Source: a virus
Lineage: Duplodnaviria; Caudoviricetes
Strand: one strand, 5' to 3'
DNA: 64,000 nt
Virus record (IMG/VR): IMGVR_UViG_3300014773_000009
Coordinates: 1 to 64,000 of that record
Shown here: piece after piece, positions 3,652-55,969 of the stretch
How positions within the stretch are numbered: position 1 is the first letter of the stretch
How the letters are laid out: every line of letters starts with the position of its first letter
Notes under the pieces: generated by a model
Databases searched by the model: none
Told to the model about the DNA's origin: nothing
Seen by the model: only the letters and a program-made list of their open reading frames with translations
Program-made: the position numbers and the translations under genes

Positions 3652-6600
3652 ATGGCCCCCAGGATTCGAGCAGACCAACCCGATGGCGCTGGCAGTGGTG
3701 TGGCCGGTGAAGCACGCACGGGCATCTGGCTCGACCAAGAGGTCGAGCTCGTGGACGTGGGAGAGGGGGCGCCCACCACCAGGCTCTTCACGCTCGACGA
3801 CAAGCCCGTGGGGAGCGCTGCAGTGCTGGCTGGCGCGACCACGTCCACAGCGACTTTCACGCCCGACGTCCCCGGCACCTACAAGTTCTCGCTCGCGTGG
3901 AACGGCGACGTCGACAACGCCTTCACGCGCGTCGTGCGCGTCACGAAGAGCGCGGAGGGCGTGGACCTCGACATTTTGATCCTGCCGGCACACGAGGAGG
4001 AAGCTGAGCACTCGGAGGGAATCAGTGGCCAGGGCGCCACGGGTCGTGGGTGGACTCCACTTGTGGAGCGCGTGATGGCAGCGACTCAGACGACTCTCGT
4101 CGACCTCACCTCCCAACTCGTCATGGACCGTGACCAGCTGATCGACGCCAGCGGCGTCGGTCCAACCATGGGGACACCTTGGGTCCCAGGATTGGCTGCC
4201 TCAGGTCACGTCCCCGGCACCAAGACCAGCTACTACATCAAGGCGTACACCCGTTCCCTGATCGTCTTGCCTGAAGACTTCGGCGTCACCTTCGTCGACG
4301 GGACCCCATTCGATCCGGCCCAGTGGGATCTCGCGCTCGATACGGTTATCGAGCTTCGCCGCGTCTTCGATCGCACCATCGGCACGCTTACCCAGGTCGG
4401 CGAGAAGGACACGACCGCGCCACGCATCGTGAAGGCGTACGTCGACATCGATGACCCTGACGTCGTGGTGGTCCGATTCGACCGCGGGGTTATCGCTCCG
4501 ACGTCTGGCGACACGAGCGTCACCGGCAAGACCATCACCGGCATCAAGTACCCGGACACGAGCCCAGAAGTCCGCTACCAGCTCAACTCCGCGTTGACGG
4601 GCGACTTGGATGCTGGGGTGGTGCACGTGACGTTCGGCGCGGCCAACACGGTCAAGGACCTCAACGGCAACGCACTCCCCGCCCAGACGATCGGCGTCTT
4701 CTGGTGGCGCGACCTGATCGACATCCCTGGACACACCGCCCACTACAAGGCCGACGACTACGTCAGCACATCGTGGGACGACGTCGCGAGCATCCGGACG
4801 CCGCTCAATGCTTCCGGGCCAGTGCGCGCCACCAATGCGATCGAGGGCGCCGTGTGCGTGAGCTTCGACGGCGTCAACGACGTGTTCAGCACAGCCGACA
4901 CGCTCGAGGCATACGTCGACAACACCGACGGCATCATTCTGTTCGGCGGCGTGGTCAAGCTCGCGCACTTGAACGGAGGCGCGGGCCAGCCCGTCAATAA
5001 CGACCAGTTGATCTGCCAGACAGGTACGGGGCAGGGCTTCGCGGTCGACTCCGGAGCCGACGGTGATAGCTACGAGCTGATCGCCACCTGCTACAGTGTG
5101 TCGCCCTATCTGGACGGAGCGAACGTTGGGATCCAACGTGGACAGCCGTTCGTCGGTCGCAACCGGCACTCGACCACCAGCCTATGGTGCAAGCGCGACC
5201 GCTTCGCGGAAAGCAGCGCGACGACTACGGGCAACATCACCGCGACGATGGCCTCGGGCTTCACCATTGGCGGACACGGTGGAGGCGACCGATTCCCAAA
5301 GTTCTACGCTGGAGACATTGCGTTCTTCGACGCGCCACTAGATGCGCAGAACGAAGAGGCAGCGTACACCTACCTCGAGCTGCGCCCGTGGGCCCACCAC
5401 CTTCGGCACACCCTGTTGCCGCCGATCGATCGCTACGCGGTGGTCGGCGTCGCGATGGAAATGAATTGGGAACACGTGATGAGCGTGCCGACGCCGGCGT
5501 TCAACTCGTCGGCGTTGAGCCAGTACACCTTCGCGGTCACGGGGCTGCCCACCGCACCGACGGTCACCACGACCAAGATGAGCTGGACCCCTGGGTCCGC
5601 ACACGTGGGCACCCACACGGCCACGGTTACCGCGACGCTCGGCAATCGCGTGGTCGCCACCGCGCGCTTCTCGGTCCACGTGTCCGCCGCGACCGGCACG
5701 GGCACGATCAAGATCCTGATCGTCGGCGACAGCAGGACCGAAGCGCTGACCTGGCCGAAGCGTATGGTCGATCAGCTGACCGCGCAGGGCCTCACCGTCA
5801 CCATGCTCGGCTCGCGTGGCGGGCGCTTGGTGACCGCGGTCAACAGCGGCACCGACCGGCTCACGATCACGGGCCACAGCCTCACCGTGAACGAACCGGT
5901 GGACCTGATCCAGACGCTCACCGGCGGCGCGTTCCCCACGGTCAGCGGCGACGCTCTAGCGGTCGGCACAACCTACTACGTCAAGACGGTGGTGGACGCG
6001 AACACGGTAGAACTGAGCCGCACGGCCGGCGGAGCCATCCTCGACTTCACGAGCACGACGGCAAACAGCTGGTACGTGCGGGCTGCGGATGAGCGAAACG
6101 AGGGGCGCGCCGGGTGGAGCTGGAGCCACTACGTCGTCGGCGACCACCCGACTCAAGGTACCTCACCGTTCCTGGATGCGGACGGCGCGTTCTCGGTGCA
6201 GCACTACATCGACACCTACCTGGGCGGCGTGGTGCCAGACGTGATCATCTGGGCGCTCAACGTGAACGGCATCTACTCGTTCTCGTCGCCTCAGATCGCC
6301 GGGGTTGCGGCCGACGACCCCACCACCTTCCGGGCCTTCATCAAGGCAACGCAGATCGCTCACGCGGAGGTCGCCATTGCCGCCGCCATCCGGGCAAACG
6401 GCGACGCTGTGCAGTTGGTCGAGGAGCCCGAGACGATGAACCTGCGCCAGGCAGCGTTCGATGCAGACTCGGGCGGCACCACGCGGTGGCAGTACAAGCG
6501 CGGCCAGGAAGTGCAGAAGGAGATGATGCGCGAGCGCTTTGGGTCGAGGGCTCTCGACAACGTGTGGCTCTGGTCACCGAGCGCGATCGACACCTACTCG

Positions 6601-6699
6601 CACTTCGACGCAGCGAACGGCATCCACCCGAACGACGCTGGGTACACGCTGATCGGTGATGAGGCAGCAGCGGCGACCCGCTTCAGACTGGCGGCATGA
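3652..6699 (+). CDS. Large multidomain virion protein: PKD/Ig-like, lectin-like, C-terminal SGNH/GDSL esterase
   Basis: TFTPDVPGTY (PKD-like); SFDGVND (LamG-like); SGNH blocks VGDSRT, EGRAGW, WALNVN, GIHPNDAGY. Confidence 0.7.
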   Translation: MAPRIRADQPDGAGSGVAGEARTGIWLDQEVELVDVGEGAPTTRLFTLDDKPVGSAAVLAGATTSTATFTPDVPGTYKFSLAWNGDVDNAFTRVVRVTKSAEGVDLDILILPAHEEEAEHSEGISGQGATGRGWTPLVERVMAATQTTLVDLTSQLVMDRDQLIDASGVGPTMGTPWVPGLAASGHVPGTKTSYYIKAYTRSLIVLPEDFGVTFVDGTPFDPAQWDLALDTVIELRRVFDRTIGTLTQVGEKDTTAPRIVKAYVDIDDPDVVVVRFDRGVIAPTSGDTSVTGKTITGIKYPDTSPEVRYQLNSALTGDLDAGVVHVTFGAANTVKDLNGNALPAQTIGVFWWRDLIDIPGHTAHYKADDYVSTSWDDVASIRTPLNASGPVRATNAIEGAVCVSFDGVNDVFSTADTLEAYVDNTDGIILFGGVVKLAHLNGGAGQPVNNDQLICQTGTGQGFAVDSGADGDSYELIATCYSVSPYLDGANVGIQRGQPFVGRNRHSTTSLWCKRDRFAESSATTTGNITATMASGFTIGGHGGGDRFPKFYAGDIAFFDAPLDAQNEEAAYTYLELRPWAHHLRHTLLPPIDRYAVVGVAMEMNWEHVMSVPTPAFNSSALSQYTFAVTGLPTAPTVTTTKMSWTPGSAHVGTHTATVTATLGNRVVATARFSVHVSAATGTGTIKILIVGDSRTEALTWPKRMVDQLTAQGLTVTMLGSRGGRLVTAVNSGTDRLTITGHSLTVNEPVDLIQTLTGGAFPTVSGDALAVGTTYYVKTVVDANTVELSRTAGGAILDFTSTTANSWYVRAADERNEGRAGWSWSHYVVGDHPTQGTSPFLDADGAFSVQHYIDTYLGGVVPDVIIWALNVNGIYSFSSPQIAGVAADDPTTFRAFIKATQIAHAEVAIAAAIRANGDAVQLVEEPETMNLRQAAFDADSGGTTRWQYKRGQEVQKEMMRERFGSRALDNVWLWSPSAIDTYSHFDAANGIHPNDAGYTLIGDEAAAATRFRLAA

Positions 6700-7970
6700 C
6701 CCCCACCGTCACGTCCATCCTCCCCGCGCTCGGCCACACCGGCGGCCGGACGTTCGTGGAGGTCACCGGCTCGGGCTTCCGCCTCCCCGGCGCGCCCCCC
6801 GCGACCGGCATCGCCCCGGCGCCAGTACGCACCGTGCGTGTGCTCTTCGGCGATATCGAGAGCCCGCTGGTGGAGGTGGCTGGGGAGGACCTGCTGTGGG
6901 TGCGGACGCCGGTGCACGACCCGGGAACGGTCGATGTCACCGTCGAAAACCTGGGCGAGACTCCGGCGGAGCTCATCTCGAGCGCCCCCACCTTCCCGCT
7001 CTCCATCGGCCACACGCTCGACGTATCGGTGAACGGCGGGCCCGCCCAGACGGTCACCTTCCAGGCCGGCGAGATCACCGCAGGAGCAACGACCGCGGGG
7101 CAGGTGGCCGCGGCCCTCAACCGACTGCTCGGGGCGCGCGCGACCATCAATGCCGCCGGCCGTGTCCGCCTGCGCACCGACCAGCGTGGGGCGAGCTCGA
7201 GCCTGCAGGTGACCGGCGGGACGGGCGCGGGCGCGCTCGGCTTTGGCGGCGCCGTCGTCCAGGGCTCGGCGGCGCTGGAGGCCATCGAGGAGGAGCGGGT
7301 GGTGCTGGCCCAGGCCTACGCGTTCGTCCGGCCTGACCTGACCCAGGCGTCCCAGCCAACGCTCGCGCTGCGCCAGCTGATGGTCGAGCTCGGGCGCCAG
7401 GTGGTCGACAACGTCCACTTCGCCACCCACACGGACTACGACGAGGAGACCGGCGACCTGCTCAACACGGCGATGCTGGCGTCGCTGCCGGCCATCATCC
7501 TCGCGGGGCTCGAGCTGCCGGACAGCCAGTCAGCGCCCACCCTCGGTAAGCAGTACGTGGAAGGTGAAAACGGGCGGGTGATCGAGAAGAGCCCGCCCGA
7601 CATTGTCGACATGACGATGATGCTGATCGGGGTGGCCAACACGGGGCCCGAGGCGCTCAACATGTACGCCATCCTGCGGCGGTTCTTCCGCAAGAACCCC
7701 ACGCTCTCCGTGCCCACGGGCGTCGGTGACGCCACCAAGAGCCACGACCTCGAGTGGAGGGCGGCGACGCCGGGTGGGGTGGCGGTCACCGCCGACAACA
7801 GTAACATCGTGACGGTGACCGGCACTGTGGCGATCCGTCGGGTCCACATCACCGACATGCCCATTCGGACGACGACGCTGCCAGCCGACCACCCGGATGC
7901 GCCTCACGAAGGTACAGCGGGAGTCACCTTCCCGAACGAGACGGTGATCCTCGACGTGCAGCCCAAGTAG
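6696..7970 (+). CDS. IPT/TIG-domain tail protein (possible tail terminator/completion C-terminus)
   Basis: PTVTSILP..G...G...VEVTGSGF...TPVHDPGTVDVTV TIG motif; lies just before the sheath gene. Confidence 0.65.
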   Translation: MTPTVTSILPALGHTGGRTFVEVTGSGFRLPGAPPATGIAPAPVRTVRVLFGDIESPLVEVAGEDLLWVRTPVHDPGTVDVTVENLGETPAELISSAPTFPLSIGHTLDVSVNGGPAQTVTFQAGEITAGATTAGQVAAALNRLLGARATINAAGRVRLRTDQRGASSSLQVTGGTGAGALGFGGAVVQGSAALEAIEEERVVLAQAYAFVRPDLTQASQPTLALRQLMVELGRQVVDNVHFATHTDYDEETGDLLNTAMLASLPAIILAGLELPDSQSAPTLGKQYVEGENGRVIEKSPPDIVDMTMMLIGVANTGPEALNMYAILRRFFRKNPTLSVPTGVGDATKSHDLEWRAATPGGVAVTADNSNIVTVTGTVAIRRVHITDMPIRTTTLPADHPDAPHEGTAGVTFPNETVILDVQPK

Positions 7971-47251: not shown

Positions 47252-47658
47252 GTGGCCTTCTCCAGCGTGATCCATGAGCCACGCTGCGACACGATCGACC
47301 AGCCTCGCTCTTCGTAGTGCTTCCATCGTCGCTTCGGCATGGTGGCTCGGAGTGGGCGTCGGTTCCCGCGCAGGTGCTTGTCTCGAGCCTTGGACAGTTT
47401 GGCGAAGATCCCTTTTCCGCGCATGTCGGGCGCCACGTACGCGTAGTCGTACCAGAGCGCACCGTCCTTTTCGCGGAGAGAGACGAAGCCCACCGCATCG
47501 TCGTGGTCGTCATCGAAGGCGACGAACCAAAGCATCCCGGGTGCGGAGTACATGGGTCCTGCCATCTCCTTCAGCACGGCTCGGCTGCAGAAGAACTGTC
47601 CGAGCACGATCCACATTCTGTCGGTGCCGTGCGGCAGCACCTCTACATGAGTCCCCAT
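47248..47658 (-). CDS. GNAT-family acetyltransferase
   Basis: YAYVAPDMRGKGIF acetyl-CoA motif A; HYEERGW. Confidence 0.8.
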   Translation of the reverse strand: MGTHVEVLPHGTDRMWIVLGQFFCSRAVLKEMAGPMYSAPGMLWFVAFDDDHDDAVGFVSLREKDGALWYDYAYVAPDMRGKGIFAKLSKARDKHLRGNRRPLRATMPKRRWKHYEERGWSIVSQRGSWITLEKAT

Positions 47659-48881
47659 CGCGACCTCCTGTCCGCCATCAGCTTGCGGTATCGCTCGTAG
47701 TGCTCAGGCTTGGTGGGCGAGAACGACAATCCCTTGCACCAGTAGTCGTTGCGCAGCAGCACCTTGCAGATGCGCCGCCAGCTGGCCACGTCTTCGCTGC
47801 CCGTGTCATTGGGCGCTTCGTCCGGGACCTGTATCGAAAGCTTCTCGCTGCAGTACCGAAGGTAGACAGCGATCTTGTCGCGGTAGTGCTCGGCTGTGGC
47901 CGCCGGCATCGTGTCGAGCAGGAAGCGCGCAAAACTCTCCCAAGTGTGGCCTTCCGGGAGCTCGACCTTGGCATTGCCCAAGATGTTGCCTCGCTCGCCC
48001 GCGTAGAGCGCGCCGCTGTTGGCACCGGCCACGCGCGCGCAAACCTTGCCCCACGTCTCCGGCTCGACAGCGTGGAAGAGCCACAGGCCTCGCCGCTGCT
48101 CGTCGCCGTACGGCTCGCAGATGCGCATGTGCGCGAGCGGGACGCCGGCCTGATGCATTCGATCGTAGAGGCGGTTATACGGCTTGCGCGTCCTGCCCAG
48201 GTAGGTCCAGATGTCAGCTGTGCGCCAGTCGTAGATGGGGTACGCGTTGAAGAGCGCCCCGCCCTTCCAAGCCGTCCACGGCTTGCCCTCCAAGCGCGAC
48301 TTGCGTCGCTTTGAGATCGCGCGCCACCGGTGCAAAGACTCGACGGTGCGGATACCCACGAGACACGCGGTGCTGGCTCCGCCGTCGCTGTACCACGCAC
48401 CGAACTTCTCGATGAAGTGCTCGAAGGTGATCTCGGGGTAGTGGAACGGGAACCGATTGGAATCGGTGATGGCTCGGTCTGGTGGTGGCCGCACCCACAA
48501 GTCACGTTTGCTCGGGTCCCAGCATGTCCACTCCGGCTCGATCATGCTCACGGCGTTGGTCGTCGTGAGTGGAAGCGCGACCCAGAACGGGTCGATGTGG
48601 CTCGCGTACAGGTCGAACATCTCGGTGACGTGATCGATCGTCAGGCGGAACTGGGCTTCCCAATCGAGGAACAGGACCCCGACTCGCCGGTCACGCTTGA
48701 CCGCTTCCTCCATCACGAGGTGCAGCATCACGCTCGAGTCTTTGCCGCCGCTGAACGAGACGTAGATGCGCTCGAAGCTGTCGAACGTCCACCGTATGCG
48801 CTCCTCCGCTGCTTCCAGCACGCTGACGCTGAGGTACTGCTTTGGGTAGGCAGCCGCTTTCTTTACTGAGCTGCTAGCCAC
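47643..48881 (-). CDS. IbrA/YbdN-like PAPS-reductase-family (PP-loop) protein, DUF3440
   Basis: SFSGGKDS, DWEAQ, GIR..ES..R, YPIYDW, MRICEPYGDEQRRGL, SWRRICK..L.ND.WC..LSF. Confidence 0.92.
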   Translation of the reverse strand: MASSSVKKAAAYPKQYLSVSVLEAAEERIRWTFDSFERIYVSFSGGKDSSVMLHLVMEEAVKRDRRVGVLFLDWEAQFRLTIDHVTEMFDLYASHIDPFWVALPLTTTNAVSMIEPEWTCWDPSKRDLWVRPPPDRAITDSNRFPFHYPEITFEHFIEKFGAWYSDGGASTACLVGIRTVESLHRWRAISKRRKSRLEGKPWTAWKGGALFNAYPIYDWRTADIWTYLGRTRKPYNRLYDRMHQAGVPLAHMRICEPYGDEQRRGLWLFHAVEPETWGKVCARVAGANSGALYAGERGNILGNAKVELPEGHTWESFARFLLDTMPAATAEHYRDKIAVYLRYCSEKLSIQVPDEAPNDTGSEDVASWRRICKVLLRNDYWCKGLSFSPTKPEHYERYRKLMADRRSRWGLM

Positions 48882-49477
48882 GTCGCTGCCTCCGACTGCG
48901 AGAGCGTGCACAGCGCCGGGCCGGCACCGATCAGGCGCCGCCGCTCGGACTCACCAACGATGTCTCGTACCTCGTACACGCGACCGTGGCGCAGCCGGTA
49001 ACACCGCTGGCCAGCCAAGACAACGAAGCCCAGGACGCGTGGCATGCCGAGCCCTGTGATCTCGGCGACCCACGGCCGGTCATCGGTGTCGTCCACACGG
49101 AGCACGGTTACTGGTCCGTCGTGACGCTCGGCCAACGCCAGCGCTTCAAGCGGCTCAAGCTTGATGTACTTTCCGAGCTCGACTCGAAGGAACTCGCGCG
49201 CCACGTGGCGCTTGGAAGAGCTGCCGCGCAATCGGCTCACCTCGTACAGGTTGCCCTCGCGCAGCGGGAAGGTAGCCACCACGCCGTAGAGGTTGCCGCT
49301 CCACGCCTTCTTGGCGTGCTCCCAGTCGTTCAGCTTCTGCACGAAGTGACGAGCCAGCCCGTACTTCGGATCGGTCCCGTCGATGCGCGCCACCCACGGT
49401 CTCGGCACATCGGAAGAGCCATGGAAGTGCCCGTCGACCTCGATGCTCAGCATCTTGATGCGGCCGGGCGATGCCAT
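48863..49477 (-). CDS. Hypothetical protein with internally duplicated domain
   Basis: PWVARIDG..LREGNLYEV repeated as PWVAEITG..LRHGRVYEV. Confidence 0.6.
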   Translation of the reverse strand: MASPGRIKMLSIEVDGHFHGSSDVPRPWVARIDGTDPKYGLARHFVQKLNDWEHAKKAWSGNLYGVVATFPLREGNLYEVSRLRGSSSKRHVAREFLRVELGKYIKLEPLEALALAERHDGPVTVLRVDDTDDRPWVAEITGLGMPRVLGFVVLAGQRCYRLRHGRVYEVRDIVGESERRRLIGAGPALCTLSQSEAATWLAAQ

Positions 49478-50157: not shown

Positions 50158-51183
50158 TCAGAAAATCCCCCTGGGGATGGCTGGGAACAGGTCCTCCGTC
50201 TTGGTGGCCAGCGACCGGCCACGGCGCATGTAGCGCTGGGTGGTCATGATCTGCGCGTGGCCCACCCTCTCCATGATGTCGCCGATGGGGTCTCCACGCA
50301 TCGCCCACCACGTGATGCCGGTGGCACGCAAGTCGTGGAAGTTGATGGGCCGCCGCTGGTCGTCGTTGGCGAAGAGTTCGGCGCGGTCGCATCCGGCGCG
50401 CGCCAGGTCCCGCCGGAGCGTCACTGCGGCATCGCCTCGGCCCCATGTGACCACTTGCTCATGGGCCTTCTGCCGCCCACGGATTGCTCGCAGAAGCTCC
50501 AGCACGGTCGGCTCCACGATGAACCGTCGGTCGCATCCTGTCTTGGTGGGACCCACCGCTCCTGTTTCTGCGCTCGTTGACCGGTACACGTGGATCCGCC
50601 CGGAGCGCAGGTCGATGTCGCTCCAGGTCAGCGCAGCGAGTTCGCCAGCCCGTGGCGCAATGTAGACCGCGAGCGCGTACGCCCGACGCCGGGCTACCGG
50701 CAGTGCGCTGCATCGGAGCAGACGAACGACCTCGTCGGGGTAGAGGAACGTGGCGGCGCGGTCGTGCCCTTGGTCGGGACCGCGCACTCCAGAAGTGATG
50801 TCGTCGTCGCGCACCCGAAGCTCGCGACGTTTGGACCGGCTCAAGTCGCGCAGCATCGCGCGCATGAAGATCCATCGTCGGCGAGCTGTCCCCCACCGGA
50901 TGGCATCCTGAGCGACCAGGTCGTCTATGCTCTCGACCCACGACGCGACGTCGTCGCGGGTCATCGTGTGCACATCGAGCCGACCAAGCGCGGGAGATAC
51001 GAAGCGCTGGTACATGGTCCACTCGCGCTCACGCCCGAGCGAGCGACGGTGCTCAAACCAGCGGGTGACCCAGTCGTCCAGCAGCTCGGTCGCGCGACGT
51101 TGGTGTCCGCCGGTCATGCGCTCGAGCCGGTCGGCGATCGCCCGCAGCTGCGCGACGACGGCCAACAGCTCGGTCACGTCCAC
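50158..51183 (-). CDS. Tyrosine recombinase (second)
   Basis: R.GEL, TKT, FHDLR, GH....T.RY catalytic set. Confidence 0.88.
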   Translation of the reverse strand: MDVTELLAVVAQLRAIADRLERMTGGHQRRATELLDDWVTRWFEHRRSLGREREWTMYQRFVSPALGRLDVHTMTRDDVASWVESIDDLVAQDAIRWGTARRRWIFMRAMLRDLSRSKRRELRVRDDDITSGVRGPDQGHDRAATFLYPDEVVRLLRCSALPVARRRAYALAVYIAPRAGELAALTWSDIDLRSGRIHVYRSTSAETGAVGPTKTGCDRRFIVEPTVLELLRAIRGRQKAHEQVVTWGRGDAAVTLRRDLARAGCDRAELFANDDQRRPINFHDLRATGITWWAMRGDPIGDIMERVGHAQIMTTQRYMRRGRSLATKTEDLFPAIPRGIF

Positions 51184-51704
51184 TCCATCGGCTTCGTGTC
51201 GCCGCGCAGGTACAGCGGGTGGCGAGGCTGGCCACGCTGGGTCAGCCCGAGATGGTAGAGCCTGCGGCCGGAGCCTCGCAGCGTCTCGCGCACGAATGCG
51301 TCACGGTCGCGCAATGCTCCGTGCGAGCCCCACGCGCAGACGATGATGTCGGCGGTCGTCGACGCGCTCACGATACGCCCGATGTTCTGCGGGTCGCCCT
51401 CAGCCTGCGCGTCGCTGTACAGCGCGCGCGGGTCCGTCGAGCGCAGCGAGAACAGGTTTCGGATCTCGAGCGCGGTGCAGTGCCACGCCTTGGCGAACCC
51501 AATGCAGCGGCGGATCGTGGGGTCGTTGTTTTCGTGGTCCGCTGTCGAAGGGTTGAGCATCACGAAGAGCGCCGTCTTCGGCTCGGGCCTCGAAAACATG
51601 CCGTGGTCGATCACGCGCGAGAGCTCGTAGCGATGGCGCAGGTCTTGGCTGAAGACAGCGCCACCGAATCCGGCGAGGTACACGGGGAGCACGATGTCAC
51701 CCAC
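51174..51704 (-). CDS. DUF1643 family protein
   Basis: RY.L.R, FVMLNPSTAD...DPTIRRC, NLF..RSTDP, AWG, PRHPLY. Confidence 0.9.
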   Translation of the reverse strand: MGDIVLPVYLAGFGGAVFSQDLRHRYELSRVIDHGMFSRPEPKTALFVMLNPSTADHENNDPTIRRCIGFAKAWHCTALEIRNLFSLRSTDPRALYSDAQAEGDPQNIGRIVSASTTADIIVCAWGSHGALRDRDAFVRETLRGSGRRLYHLGLTQRGQPRHPLYLRGDTKPMEWT

Positions 51705-51903
51705 AGTCCGGCTCCTTCCGCGCGCACTCGCTGCACACCACGAACGCGCCGCATGCTGTGCCATCGTCGAGCGTCAGGTCGTGCTCGATCGAACACATGT
51801 CTCTGCACGGTTCGGCCTCGTGGCACTGTGGGCAGCGGTGTACGTGGTCGCCAATCGCGAGTGGTCGCGGCGACTGCATGTAGATCGTAAACGTCTCACC
51901 CAC
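51697..51903 (-). CDS. Small Cys-rich (Zn-finger) protein
   Basis: CPQC...C...C...CSEC; bounded by a 19-bp direct repeat. Confidence 0.55.
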   Translation of the reverse strand: MGETFTIYMQSPRPLAIGDHVHRCPQCHEAEPCRDMCSIEHDLTLDDGTACGAFVVCSECARKEPDCG

Positions 51904-51914
51904 AGTCCGGCTCC
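51697..51914. repeat. 19-bp direct repeat TCACCCACAGTCCGGCTCC (51697-51715 and 51896-51914)
   Basis: Exact match read from the sequence. Confidence 0.9.
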
Positions 51915-52102
51915 GCGTCGCTGCCGCTGGCTCGGTCGATGCCAGTCGCTGCTCGCGACAGCGAATCGACGTGAACACACGGAGCAGAACCGCCACACGG
52001 GAGGTGCCACGCTCGCTCGCGACCAAGCAGCGCGCCGCAGCCGGTGCAGACCCACGGCATTCGTGGTCGCCTCTTGTTGCCAGCGAATCGATTCGCCTTC
52101 AC
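51896..52102 (-). CDS. Small hypothetical protein
   Basis: GTGA coupling to the mom stop; contains CTGC. Confidence 0.45.
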   Translation of the reverse strand: MKANRFAGNKRRPRMPWVCTGCGALLGRERAWHLPCGGSAPCVHVDSLSRAATGIDRASGSDAEPDCG

Positions 52103-52893
52103 CCCTCACCTCCTGCCGCCAGCGCGAACTTTCTGTACGGCTCACCTGCCGGCATGTGTCGTCGTAGGCGTCGATCGAGTGCCCACGCGTACCGGAGGTT
52201 CCCCGGGTGTCGAGCGGTGCGCGTGAGCCGTGGCAGCCACGTCGCGACCCACTCTCTCCCGCGCGTCGGGTCGAGCAGCGGCTCCGCCCCGTGCGCCACC
52301 AGCATGCGCATCGAGTACCGCCAACCGCGATCACCAGACCGGATCTTCTGGATGGCGCGCGCGCTCAAGACGTGCCCGTCAGGCAGCAGGCGCACGGTGC
52401 GCGGGTTTGCCTGACCCAGGAACACGCCGTTGTGCGCCTGGTAGATGGTCCCGATGTGGCCTGCGAACACCAGCGATCCGGAGGCGCTCCTGCGCGGCAT
52501 CGGATCCGAGAAGCTCAGGACCATGTCTGCGTCGTGGCGGAGCAGGTCCCAGCACCGCGCCAGCGTCCACGTTTCGGCGTTGGCCGGAACACGATCCAGC
52601 AGCACGAACCGAGACAACTCGATGGGCGTGCCAGGCAGGCGCGCGGCTTGGACTGCGGCGGGAAACGGGTCCGAGAACACCGCGACGCCGACGAGCTCGC
52701 CACGGTCGAATAGGCCGAACCGGAAGCGAGCCGCTGGGTAGCTGGCCGCGTAGTGATGCCTCTCGACGAACGCCTTCACCGTCGCGTCTTGTTCGATGGG
52801 TGCCACGTCGAGCGTGGCGGTGGAGACGACCTCGCCCGCCGGTCGGTAGTGATCGCGCCGATCGCGCCAGCGCTGGCACACGGCGGTCAGCAT
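52099..52893 (-). CDS. Mom-family adenine-modifying (methylcarbamoyl) GNAT enzyme
   Basis: FV..HHY..S.P, GL.....LVGVAVF, ELSRFVLLD.VP.NAE.W, SFSDP, GH.GTIYQA.N. Confidence 0.85.
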   Translation of the reverse strand: MLTAVCQRWRDRRDHYRPAGEVVSTATLDVAPIEQDATVKAFVERHHYAASYPAARFRFGLFDRGELVGVAVFSDPFPAAVQAARLPGTPIELSRFVLLDRVPANAETWTLARCWDLLRHDADMVLSFSDPMPRRSASGSLVFAGHIGTIYQAHNGVFLGQANPRTVRLLPDGHVLSARAIQKIRSGDRGWRYSMRMLVAHGAEPLLDPTRGREWVATWLPRLTRTARHPGNLRYAWALDRRLRRHMPAGEPYRKFALAAGGEG

Positions 52894-54281
52894 GACTCCA
52901 CCGCCAACTCGTTCATGTCCCAGAGGTCAGAGAGGTGGTCGACGTCCGCGCGCATCCTGGCGACGTCGAAGCCACCTTTGGCGAGACCAGGTCGCCGCTG
53001 CTCCTGTTCACCCGCGGTGCAGTCAGCGCCGAATCGCGAGCAGTTACGGCCACCAGCTGGTGGGCTGTTAATCACCGGGTCGCTGGTTCGAGTCCAGCAG
53101 CTGGAGCCAAAAATCACGCAGAACTCGCTGCGTGGCGTGGGCACCAAGACCCCAAAATCCTGCGGTGAGTTCTCCCGCTTTCGAGGCTCCTGATACACCG
53201 GCGCTACAGCGCGCAGCATGCGCGCTGCGAGTTCTTCGCGGCTGAACCGTCCGTAGGTGGTCTCCACCATCCGCGTGTCCACGTGGCCCATGCTGGGCCC
53301 GATGAGCTCCACCGGCATGCCCGCGGCGCGCATCCAGTGGGAGTAGGTTCTGCGGAGGTCGTTGGCTGAGCATGGCTCGATGCTGGCGCGGCCGCACGCG
53401 TCGCGCAGGTCGCGCACGTTCTTCACCCACGGGCGAAACAGGCGACCGGCATCCTTGTTCGCGGCGCCGGCGAGCGCGTGCTTGAGCAGTTCGCGCTGCC
53501 ACGTCGTCACGATGGGAACCCAGCGCTCGCTCGCGTCGGTCTTGGTGCCGCGCACGCGAACGAAGCCAGCGTCGAGGTCGATGTCCACGCGCTCTGCCCG
53601 GTCGCTCTCCCCAAGGCGTGCGGAAGTGGCCACGATGAACGCCACCCGAGCGGCGCGATCTGCGGCGACCATGTTGTGCCACGGCCATTTCGCTCCACGG
53701 TCGCGCCCGAGCTCGACCAACAGCTGGTCGAACTCCTCTCGCACGAGCCACCGCTGACGCGGTTGGTAGCCGGGCGAGAACCCGATCGGCATGATCTTGG
53801 CGAGGTCGCCGTCCCAACGGTCGCGGCGCTTCGCGAGTCGGAGCGTCTTGCGGAGCACGACCAGCTCTTTGCTGATGGTGTTGGCGGTCACGCCCTCGTC
53901 GCGGCGCAGCGCGATGTACCCGTCCACATGCCGCGCAGCCAGGTCGCTCGCGAGCGTGGGGAGCACGAGCTCGCCTTCGGCGTCCTTGGTCTGGAGCGCG
54001 CGCACGAGGTGACCGGCACGCGCCGTGTAGAAGTCGACGGTCGCGGTGGACAGCTTGCCCTCCTTCGCCTGCGCCCAGCACTCCGCGATCATGTCGTCGA
54101 GCGCGGACTCGAGCGTGGTCGTGCTGGTCGTGTGATTGGGATCAGCCGACTCCCGCTCGAGACGTCGTGCGACCTGCTCAGCCGCCGCGCGGTCGTGGCA
54201 CTTGGTGGATCGCGTCTGCCGTTCGCCGGCGCGATCGTAGAACTGCGCGTACCAGACCCTGCCTCGCTTGAAGACCCGCAC
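52887..54281 (-). CDS. int: Integrase (tyrosine recombinase) with attP inside its 3' end
   Basis: KRG.VW N-terminus; R..E, GTKT, NDLRRT, MGH....M...Y; the C-terminal GSSCWTRTSDPVINS is a tRNA read antisense. Confidence 0.88.
   Translation of the reverse strand: MRVFKRGRVWYAQFYDRAGERQTRSTKCHDRAAAEQVARRLERESADPNHTTSTTTLESALDDMIAECWAQAKEGKLSTATVDFYTARAGHLVRALQTKDAEGELVLPTLASDLAARHVDGYIALRRDEGVTANTISKELVVLRKTLRLAKRRDRWDGDLAKIMPIGFSPGYQPRQRWLVREEFDQLLVELGRDRGAKWPWHNMVAADRAARVAFIVATSARLGESDRAERVDIDLDAGFVRVRGTKTDASERWVPIVTTWQRELLKHALAGAANKDAGRLFRPWVKNVRDLRDACGRASIEPCSANDLRRTYSHWMRAAGMPVELIGPSMGHVDTRMVETTYGRFSREELAARMLRAVAPVYQEPRKRENSPQDFGVLVPTPRSEFCVIFGSSCWTRTSDPVINSPPAGGRNCSRFGADCTAGEQEQRRPGLAKGGFDVARMRADVDHLSDLWDMNELAVESC
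53063..53109 (+). other. Probable attP core: 3' half of tRNA-Asn(GTT)
   Basis: CT-GTT-AA loop, TCACC, T-arm GCTGG-TTCGAGT-CCAGC, acceptor AGCTGGA-G-CCA; no D-arm upstream. Confidence 0.85.
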
Positions 54282-54448
54282 CGCATCACCTCCGCCACGT
54301 ACTGCTCCCAAACCGACCGCGGGACTCGCAGGATGCCACGAGCTCCGCGCTTGCGCTGCACCGCTCTTCGCATGTGCGCATACGCCGTCGACTCCACCAC
54401 GTCGAGCGACGCCATCACCTCCTGCACGGTGACGAACTCGGCGCTCAT
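54089..54448 (-). CDS. Excisionase-like HTH protein
   Basis: VTVQEVMASLDVVESTAY...LRVP...WEQY; directly upstream of and overlapping int. Confidence 0.6.
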   Translation of the reverse strand: MSAEFVTVQEVMASLDVVESTAYAHMRRAVQRKRGARGILRVPRSVWEQYVAEVMRCGSSSEAGSGTRSSTIAPANGRRDPPSATTARRLSRSHDVSSGSRLIPITRPARPRSSPRSTT

Positions 54449-55566
54449 GGCATCTCCTGCATCTCGCGCGCCACGCGCGAGAGGTAGCCGCATCCATCGA
54501 TGTGCGGACCAGGATCCTCAACGTCGGTCATGCATGGGCACACTGGCCACGTGTCTCCCGGCATCATCCGCGCGCGCAGGCCAGCGGGCCACTCCGACAT
54601 GTCTCCGCCCTTGCGGTCCTTCAGCGATCGCACGCCTAGCGGTCTCGACCCGAGCTGCTTCACGAACGCCGGCACACCTGCTGCGCGGCACTGCTCCACG
54701 ATGTCGTGGACCCACCGAACGTCGCACGGCCTGGCGCCGGGTCCGCTTTCGCCGCCAACGATGACCCAGTCGATTCTCGCGACGTCGCGGCACGGTCTGC
54801 CCATGTCTGAGTGTCGACCGGTGAGCGCGTCTACCTGGCACATGCTTGTATGTCCGGCGCGGTCGGCGTCCAGGTGCCTGAGATTGATCTTCTCCAATAG
54901 CGGCTCACACGACAAGAACCGCACGGTTGCAGGTGTTTGGAGCAGATGCGGAATGCGCTCGTCTGCGCGCTGCTGGTCTTCAACGCTCACGCCCAGGTGG
55001 ACGTTGCGCAGCGGCCATTGCTGGAAAACAAGGTATCCATGCTTGTCGAGGTCGTTGAGCAGCCTACGGCTCTGGTGCGTTCCTGGAGGCAATGCTCCAG
55101 CCTGCTCGGCGCACAGCTCGCAGCGAGAGATCGTGCCTGCGGCTAACGGCTCCGCGGTGAACGAGTCGACCCACATGAACCAGCGTCGCATCCGCTCTGT
55201 GCGCTTGGTGAGGACTTGGAACGTGTGCTGCGGCGCCGCTGCCATCACTCCGAAGACGGCAGCGATCTGCTCGTTGGTGTTCTGCTCGAAGAACAGATCG
55301 CCCATGTCGCAGACGAAGATGCGCGATGGGCTGCGCAGTCGAAGCGGCATCGTGAGGTCCTTGCCCCACAGCCGAGACTCGCCAGTCCACCGCGGGCCGC
55401 CCTGCCTCTCCGACCACTGTGCGAGCCCGGCGTACTTGGGCAGGTGTCGCAATCGCGTGGCCGTAAGCCGCTCGGCGTAGCAGTTCGCACAGCCTGGGCT
55501 GGTCCGCAGGCACCCGTTGAGGACGGGCCAGCTGTGGTCGGTCCACTCGATGTTGGTCTTACCCAT
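54445..55566 (-). CDS. Gp37/Gp68 (DUF5131) family protein
   Basis: T.IEWTD.SW, GC...SPGC.NCYA, MGDLF, HTFQVLTKR, FLSCEPLL, WVIVGGESG, FVKQLG. Confidence 0.93.
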   Translation of the reverse strand: MGKTNIEWTDHSWPVLNGCLRTSPGCANCYAERLTATRLRHLPKYAGLAQWSERQGGPRWTGESRLWGKDLTMPLRLRSPSRIFVCDMGDLFFEQNTNEQIAAVFGVMAAAPQHTFQVLTKRTERMRRWFMWVDSFTAEPLAAGTISRCELCAEQAGALPPGTHQSRRLLNDLDKHGYLVFQQWPLRNVHLGVSVEDQQRADERIPHLLQTPATVRFLSCEPLLEKINLRHLDADRAGHTSMCQVDALTGRHSDMGRPCRDVARIDWVIVGGESGPGARPCDVRWVHDIVEQCRAAGVPAFVKQLGSRPLGVRSLKDRKGGDMSEWPAGLRARMMPGDTWPVCPCMTDVEDPGPHIDGCGYLSRVAREMQEMP

Positions 55567-55969
55567 CGTCTCGCTCCAAGCAATTCCACTGCCCGCTCTT
55601 CGCGCGGACATAGTCGCGCCACGAACCGCCGAACTCGCGGCGACACTCGGCGAGTTCGGCCATCGTCGGATGGCCGCGCATGATCGGCGAGTCGCCGGCC
55701 TCGTGCAGGCGGACCCGCTTGGTGATTTGGAAGCGTAGGTGACCCGGAGCCGACGGACACACCGCTCCACGCCAGCAGCGTTTGTGACACTCGACCACAA
55801 AGCGCGTCAGTAGCGAGTCGTCGAACGTGCTCGCGCCAGGTCGTCCAACGTAGATCGAGACGCTGAAGACGCGGCCACCGTCGTGGCGGATGTCGCGGTC
55901 GCGCATGTGGCGCTGGAGCGCGGCCTCGAACAGCGCTCGGGCCTGGGCGGCTAGGTCGCTCATCGCCAC
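55559..55969 (-). CDS. Hypothetical protein
   Basis: STFD...LT.FV...H..C.R motif; coupled ORF. Confidence 0.6.
   Translation of the reverse strand: MAMSDLAAQARALFEAALQRHMRDRDIRHDGGRVFSVSIYVGRPGASTFDDSLLTRFVVECHKRCWRGAVCPSAPGHLRFQITKRVRLHEAGDSPIMRGHPTMAELAECRREFGGSWRDYVRAKSGQWNCLERDDG

Follow-up and report, generated by a model that had tools for sequence, protein, structure and literature searches.

A probable temperate phage of uncultured Polyangiaceae whose integrase gene reads through its tRNA-Asn-type attachment site

The DNA analysed here, referred to as the window, comprises the first 64 kb of the 94,867-b IMG/VR virus record IMGVR_UViG_3300014773_000009 (Duplodnaviria; Caudoviricetes), and all coordinates are those of the window. 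Its minus strand carries a tyrosine integrase gene, int, whose reading frame crosses a piece of tRNA-Asn on the opposite strand, interpreted as the core of the phage attachment site (attP), and then continues into a C-terminal tail. The features concerned are as follows (aa, amino acids; nt, nucleotides).

52887..54281, minus strand: int, tyrosine integrase, 464 aa in the attP (phage) form (Pfam Phage_integrase, 4.4e-09)
53065..53109, plus strand: attP core, 45 nt equal to tRNA-Asn(GTT) from C32 in the anticodon loop to CCA, antisense to int
52887..53064, minus strand: Int tail (residues 407-464 and stop codon), for which integration is predicted to substitute HLLYRLS and a stop

The open minus-strand frame extends from 54521 to 52887, within which the start of int was set at the GTG at 54281 (MRVFKRGRVWYAQFYD...) by the N-termini of 181 homologues, MR(V/L)(F/Y)KRG. 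The integrase domain (PF00589) scores 36.8 bits against a cut-off of 27.1, and both this domain and all database similarity stop near residue 350-360. The catalytic positions R222, K247, R310, H333 and Y343, whose roles were assigned by eye from alignments, are all present; K247, R310, H333 and Y343 vary little or not at all, and R222 occupies the Arg-I position in this Int. An AlphaFold model built with 120 sequences has a per-residue confidence (pLDDT) above 90 for most of residues 1-360 and places an N-terminal three-strand sheet (pLDDT above 95) ahead of the core-binding and catalytic domains. Beyond these domains the frame reads straight through the tRNA half, as the original prediction had claimed, the core lying within the open reading frame (ORF) 54281-52887: read antisense, the tRNA piece yields residues 391-406 (FGSSCWTRTSDPVINS), and another 58 codons come after them.

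The core is identical over 45 of 45 positions to the tRNA-Asn(GTT) genes of seven loci compared register by register (L014, L015, L021, L031, L033, L048 and L065), all of them in uncultured metagenome-assembled genomes (MAGs), six of which are labelled Polyangiaceae. These exact-match genes have the anticodon stem GGTGA/TCACC. One of them (L065) comes from a membrane bioreactor, and another (the Lyne MAG, L021) presumably comes from a wastewater sample, judged by its name. The tRNA-Asn of Sorangium type matches from 53063, yet differs at two anticodon-stem positions; the original prediction of a tRNA-Asn half running from the anticodon loop to CCA at 53063-53109 on the plus strand was thus right as to identity, the exact match starting at 53065. 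It had also been proposed that the host be sought by comparing the core with tRNA-Asn genes, and this comparison, run with the 29-mer GGTCGCTGGTTCGAGTCCAGCAGCTGGAG (53078-53106), leads to Polyangiaceae-type myxobacteria: in a collection with one genome for each of 185,579 species, the 29-mer occurs at 67 loci, all of them in Polyangiaceae, Sorangium, Polyangium, Labilithrix, Byssovorax, Chondromyces, Minicystis or unclassified Myxococcota MAGs, and 11 of 12 loci scanned have it inside a tRNA-Asn(GTT) gene. The window lacks the 5′ half of the host tRNA-Asn, which ends ...GGTAGAGCAGGTGA. Neither ARAGORN nor Rfam (E up to 10) reports a whole tRNA in the window, as expected of half a tRNA, and the identity of the core was therefore shown by pattern search and alignment.

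The record is classed as linear, with a completeness of 100% by CheckV estimate, and the window has a GC content of about 67%. To the left of int lie genes for a tail-sheath-like protein, a tape measure, a baseplate wedge, a large terminase, an endolysin and a MuF-like head protein; to its right lie DUF5131, DUF488, small ORFs and an SbcC-like protein. The 94,867-b record has a single copy of the core. Four DNA runs, all from one study of bioreactor sludge and one of them perhaps from the source sample, contain the stretch, and no RNA run was listed for it; contigs of the four runs span the core in the attP form with zero differences. Since there is one copy of the core, phage genes stand on both sides of it and contigs bridge it, the record corresponds to the unintegrated form, which agrees with the earlier view that both flanks are phage-like (structural genes to the left, DNA-metabolism genes to the right). 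Loose contig ends at 53078 and 53111 were considered as attachment-site joints and rejected, as they derive from the tRNA-Asn of another organism. DNA and protein searches of the GenBank phage collection and an Int peptide pattern search of IMG/VR found no close relatives.

Integration at tRNA-Asn with a rewritten Int C-terminus is, as we read the sequences, seen in relatives. Two of them, P0006 (54% identical to Int and present on six contigs) and P0009, end ...DPV(I/V)NSHLLY(Q/R)LS. At three loci (L074, L075 and L076) a complete tRNA-Asn on the opposite strand, detected by ARAGORN, overlaps the 3′ end of int, so that the TAA of int falls within the 5′ half of the tRNA, and beyond the tRNA lie a polysaccharide deacetylase, a DUF3224 gene and an AraC-type regulator, that is, host-like genes. 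We read these ends as left attachment sites (attL). The original prediction had advised searching integrated relatives for both junctions; attL is represented by these three loci, and a search by way of Mom homologues, which occur in five of 383 Polyangiaceae genomes, gave no clear case of an integrated relative with mom, the gene that follows int here, at the right attachment site (attR). One candidate for such a relative (L113), in which Mom directly follows a host AraC gene and a decayed tRNA-like 3′ end lies about 500 nt upstream of Mom, was rejected as too degenerate.

Taken together, these observations make it very probable that the record represents a temperate phage of uncultured Polyangiaceae, contractile-tailed and in its free (attP) form, with int running through attP, and this degree of confidence applies to the explanation as a whole, namely the attP form, int across attP, an exchange of the Int tail and detachment of mom as a by-product. 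Crossover within the core would rebuild an intact tRNA-Asn at attL, and because the core shares the orientation of the tRNA, the body of int would come to lie beside the rebuilt tRNA. The int frame at attL would then run into the antisense 5′ half of the tRNA and stop at a TAA supplied by it, turning the 464-aa phage Int into a 413-aa prophage Int. This predicted prophage form (Int 1-406 plus HLLYRLS) is obtained by reading the tRNA-Asn of L014 type as in the attL relatives. The 58-residue tail, together with mom, a DUF1643 gene and a second recombinase gene downstream of int, would pass to attR, facing inward with host DNA upstream. By analogy with the IntP and IntX forms of the myxophage Mx8, we infer that the tail swap would alter the behaviour of the integrase, the free form favouring integration.

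The same layout recurs in the wider integrase family. Among 383 Polyangiaceae genomes surveyed at a cut-off of E 1e-40 or better, 29 have an Int homologue (37-54% identity), and at 18 of 30 loci an antisense tRNA lies 100-250 nt past the catalytic domain (14 Phe, 2 Arg, 1 Met, 1 Pro). In a 120-sequence alignment most members contain ...GIEP(P/A/G)TRGFS..., which is an antisense T-arm, followed either by a short end CST(D/N) and stop, as in attL, or by a longer conserved tail, as in attP. The sequences thus point to int across attP as the general layout in the family. An attR was sought for a prophage of the tRNA-Phe clade in one genome (G306), but the second match is a whole tRNA-Phe and no fragment.

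The tail beyond the core can be compared among nine attP-form Ints with 43-61% identity (the Int of the window, P0004, P0005, P0011, P0074, P0079, P0096, P0046 and P0094). All have the antisense-tRNA peptide GS(S/D)CWTRTSDPVINS (GS(S/D)CWTRTSDPV(I/V)N(S/R)), after which come tails of about 35-70 residues that share an invariant C421 and L433 and the common motif (P)GLAKAVR..G..(W/F/Y)D; DNA outside the core is strongly diverged among attP-form relatives. Third-position GC in the int frame is at least 0.9 up to about 53210, takes values of 0.57-0.77 across 52970-53210 (linker and core) and is back to 0.80-0.90 for the last ~40 codons (52850-52999). A protein search with Int residues 380-464 alone matched the phage's own protein only.

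Several points weigh against the explanation given above. The tail is predicted to be mostly disordered, residues 371-438 lying nearly all below pLDDT 50 in the AlphaFold model and being followed by a single low-confidence helix (440-463). Its conservation is modest, and constraint on the DNA by arm sites could explain part of it. A 58-codon open frame is not rare at 68% GC, as by our estimate about 28% of such stretches are without a stop, which makes the open frame itself weak evidence. Integration of this phage is argued from relatives of 54% identity or less. Lastly, the contigs of the four sludge DNA runs contain no attL or attR junction forms of this phage, contigs dropping rare variants and being, for that reason, uninformative on whether lysogens exist. 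By the sequences at hand, the real support for a coding tail comes from the relatives and from the codon-position GC signal, and we conclude that the tail is translated and weakly constrained and may have a function.

The linker between the catalytic domain and the core contains repeated copies of GCNGNGAGTTCT.

53120..53235: candidate P-arm inside int linker codons, with three GCNGNGAGTTCT copies at 53120-53131 (minus strand), 53162-53173 (plus strand) and 53224-53235 (plus strand)

The window has four exact copies of GCNGNGAGTTCT, three of them within these 116 nt between the catalytic-domain codons and the core, and repeats of this type were not seen on the tail side of the core. They are candidate arm-type sites that Int may bind, consistent with the N-terminal sheet domain of the predicted structure, and the stretch from the catalytic domain to the core encodes a disordered linker and probably also acts as P arm. 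Int may therefore belong with the heterobivalent, lambda-type integrases, in which an arm-binding N-terminal domain goes with arm-type repeats flanking the core. The copy nearest the core forms a 7-bp hairpin (53134-53115, minus strand) that lies within the ORF shortly before the core and has ATTTTT after it on the int strand. A terminator scan reports this hairpin, one such hit being at chance level in shuffled sequence; transcription into mom, or into the tRNA gene at attL, might be limited by it.

The genes around int belong to the same leftward run.

52099..52893, minus strand: mom-like gene, 264 aa (Pfam Mom PF25680, 9e-20, 71.6 bits against a cut-off of 27.1, residues 28-190)
51174..51764, minus strand: DUF1643 gene, downstream of mom in the leftward run (Pfam, 2.8e-37)
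50158..51183, minus strand: second tyrosine recombinase gene, 341 aa, its start overlapping the end of the DUF1643 gene (Pfam Phage_integrase, 3.5e-15)
54445..55800, minus strand: DUF5131 (Gp37/Gp68-type) gene, upstream of int in the leftward run (Pfam, 6.3e-71)

The TGA of int (52889-52887) overlaps the ATG of mom (52893-52891) in ATGCTGA, and the mom start is supported by homologues of 48-55% identity that align from residue 2-5. The earlier description of an ORF ending about 59 codons past the core and overlapping the mom start holds for the overlap, and the codons number 58. For the second recombinase, NCBIfam matches are only weak and Xer-like, and its role is possibly dimer resolution, inversion or a second attachment system. 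Further along the leftward arm, a gene with PAPS-reductase and DUF3440 (IbrA-like) domains lies at 47643-48911 (minus strand), and the IbrA-like gene, DUF932, DUF488, DUF5131, Mom and DUF1643 share this arm, which suggests a concentration of DNA-modification-type genes.

Among six attP-form cases compared, Mom comes after int in two, and the two genes overlap directly only in this phage. The second case (L072, Int 56-58% identical) has DUF1643 upstream of int, and int is followed by a 200-nt gap, a 77-aa gene and then Mom. In the P0004 contig (60-61% identical), int is followed by a 101-aa ORF with a 4-nt overlap at the int stop, no Mom being recorded there; elsewhere int is followed by YAcAr in L117, by a 153-aa ORF in L118 and by small ORFs in the P0079 contig. 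Viewed from Mom, none of three viral contigs with 42-55% identical homologues has int upstream of Mom, AAA_24, RadC or small ORFs standing there instead. Mom homologues were found in five of the 383 Polyangiaceae genomes, and at the two of these five chromosomal loci that were examined Mom adjoins C5 and N6/N4 DNA methylases. A consensus scan that does not model myxobacterial promoters found no sigma-70-like promoter in 51900-54700, and the 9-mer GCGCCGACG, which resembles a late promoter, does not occur near either int or mom. All the relatives have int inside a long operon whose genes share its strand.

Three other accounts of these data have to be weighed against an Int whose tail is exchanged on integration. 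The tRNA-like stretch might be a relic, either a recombination scar or a captured piece of tRNA, in a phage that no longer integrates; the attP form is indeed the only one among the four runs of the one study, and a second tyrosine recombinase is present. Decay is, however, at odds with identity over all 45 positions to living host tRNA-Asn genes, all five catalytic residues of Int are in place and close family members are integrated at exactly this site, so that we regard a relic as most improbable. Alternatively, integration may take place while the tail is meaningless read-through, the working integrase being confined, whether free or integrated, to the first ~360-406 residues, with the frame beyond them open by GC-richness. 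The estimate for stop-free stretches, the low pLDDT of residues 371-438 and the dip in third-position GC would all fit such an account, which nevertheless leaves unexplained why nine homologues retain a tail of about 35-70 residues with the same invariant Cys and Leu, why substitutions are of the aromatic-Asp and Lys/Arg kinds typical of protein-level constraint even though the DNA has diverged, why high third-position GC returns in the same frame over the last codons and why the int stop overlaps the start of the next gene both here and in the P0004 contig. We consider read-through of this kind unlikely.

The third account concerns mom. The original prediction proposed that integration would part mom, the DUF1643 gene and the second recombinase gene from the upstream operon, which follows from the geometry of crossover in the core, and that this amounts to an integration-operated switch confining Mom to the extrachromosomal state, a proposal weakened by the finding that the linkage of int and Mom is not conserved among relatives. 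Under such a switch the three genes would have no promoter of their own and would be made by read-through from int and translational coupling, so that integration would silence a potentially toxic DNA-modifying enzyme in the lysogen and excision would restore it. The ATGCTGA overlap, the simple scan without a sigma-70-like promoter, the crossover geometry of an attP inside int and the second case of Mom downstream of an attP-bearing int (L072) are what one would expect of it. In four of the six attP-form relatives, however, other genes follow int; in L072 itself Mom is set off from int by the gap and the 77-aa gene while DUF1643 lies on the other side; no int precedes Mom in the three viral contigs that carry close homologues of it; and the two chromosomal Mom loci examined place it beside methylases. 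Moreover, the promoter scan is blind to myxobacterial promoters, the terminator-like hairpin with its T-run before the core would, if real, run contrary to tight co-transcription, and the early operon is probably repressed in the lysogen anyway. A dedicated switch is thus unlikely, and equally unlikely is a combined version in which integration acts both as an operon breaker, downstream genes coming on only once excision has linked them to the early promoter again, and as a directionality-setting tail swap, giving a two-part checkpoint of the form "excise first, then modify DNA". As int lies mid-operon in every relative, integration splits the operon whatever its cargo, and the detachment of mom is a consequence of this architecture; most likely, it is a by-product of the int-across-attP layout and not dedicated control of Mom.

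Among known systems, Mx8 offers the closest architecture. In the Mx8 record int occupies 5085-6809 and contains an antisense tRNA 3′ end (GGGTTCAAGTCCCGTACTCCTCGCCA) at about 6433-6466, with co-directional genes after int, which bears out the earlier statement that attP lies within int in Mx8. Both phages have a tyrosine integrase whose ORF, towards its 3′ end, crosses the 3′ fragment of a tRNA lying antisense to it. The tRNA gene that serves as target is that for tRNA-Asp in Mx8 and, by prediction, that for tRNA-Asn in the present phage. Here the identity block covers 45 nt starting in the anticodon loop, whereas in Mx8 it covers ~30 nt, comprising T-arm and acceptor; tail lengths are 58 codons here and ~115 in Mx8; and the host is of Polyangiaceae and not Myxococcus, with a 95-kb record encoding a tail sheath against the 49.5 kb of Mx8. 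A direct BLASTP comparison with Mx8 Int gave no similarity beyond chance (E 0.66), and Mx8 was not among the tblastn matches in the phage collection. By sequence, then, the architecture is Mx8-like, but the protein falls outside the Mx8 integrase family. Mx8 integration alters the Int C-terminus, according to the title of the 1996 paper by Tojo et al. and to the Islander paper; the IntP and IntX (IntR) forms and attP within int were reportedly described by Tojo et al. in 1996, by Magrini et al. in 1999 and by Tojo and Komano in 2003, and Mx9 was reportedly found similar to Mx8 by Julien in 2003.

In SSV the integrase gene is split on integration into two separated parts and inactivated. The arrangement here differs from this type (Fuselloviridae) in that only the last 58 codons would be swapped and the catalytic domain would stay whole. 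Expression depends on element topology in the int/sib retroregulation of lambda, at Pcirc of ICEclc and at the junction promoters of insertion sequences (IS), where RNA elements or promoters have been mapped; a mom switch would resemble lambda int/sib and circular-form promoters in principle. As for phage Mu Mom, the gene after int scores above the cut-off of Pfam PF25680 and is a family member by profile match, whereas the homologues found here sit in DNA-methylase or DNA-metabolism operons, and neither a Com-like translational activator nor control of the Dam/OxyR type was seen, no search having been aimed at them. A passage of the Islander paper states that the integrases of Mx8 and SSV extend across attP, citing Tojo et al. 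1996, and that the SSV-type attP lies inside the integrase gene, so that integration into a tRNA gene alters the gene (PMC4383910).

An attP within int is already known from Mx8; here an Mx8-like architecture occurs in an unrelated integrase family, with a tRNA-Asn target and a Polyangiaceae host predicted for it. The predicted host is an uncultured activated-sludge member of Polyangiaceae whose tRNA-Asn has the GGTGA/TCACC anticodon stem. This prediction specifies the bacterial attachment site (attB) of the uncultured 95-kb phage exactly and offers int-attP as a candidate cassette for genetics in Sorangium- and Polyangium-type myxobacteria, Mx8 and Mx9 being the usual models. The data add evidence that, in a large family of Myxococcota integrases with no sequence relationship to Mx8 Int, int as a rule spans attP. 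Because the layout is family-wide, annotation pipelines should expect two C-terminal forms of Int and keep tRNA fragments inside int. The idea of mom control matters only if transcription proves to be topology-dependent.

Some further observations concern int and its family. By eye, the Arg-I position, three residues before Glu in ATSARLGE, is Cys or Asn in many homologues (ATSACWGE, ATGANLSE), and the usual first His of box II is Asn307 in this Int. A minus-strand ORF at 54089-54493 (ATG at 54493) overlaps the GTG of int at 54281 by ~190 nt in another frame; it has no Pfam or NCBIfam match, its first ~55 residues look by eye like a small helix-turn-helix or excisionase-type protein, and its position recalls Mx8 uoi, which overlaps the start of Mx8 int. 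On a 16-Mb chromosome of the Polyangiaceae family (L107, G219:C1:569614-570444), a homologue with one internal TAG and no tRNA nearby matches Int residues 143-434, running through the core into the tail, and may be an attP-form remnant inside the chromosome.

Others concern the attachment site. A close Int was found in none of the genomes of five exact-core loci. In L021 a large serine recombinase gene (6288-7600, minus strand) lies directly downstream of the exact-match tRNA-Asn, and a partial copy of the present tyrosine integrase family follows ~1 kb beyond it at the contig end; tRNA-Asn is apparently a hot spot for integration. The partial copies of tRNA-Asn seen in L041 and L030 were set aside, as they have no link to this integrase family. 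In L030 (Labilithrix luteola) the tRNA-Asn lies at 1206-1279 and the partial copy at 2194-2222, 944 nt downstream; the copy starts at the D-loop and shares its 3′ flank with the full tRNA-Asn, and the pair looks like a tandem duplication or an old island scar. Just left of the core in the window, CCACCAGCTGG (53050-53060) repeats CCAGCAGCTGG of the acceptor/T-arm part (53094-53104), and the two are also inverted-complementary (a PvuII-like palindrome). The left flank of attP thus mimics the 5′ acceptor strand of the tRNA, perhaps as a core-type site or perhaps by chance.

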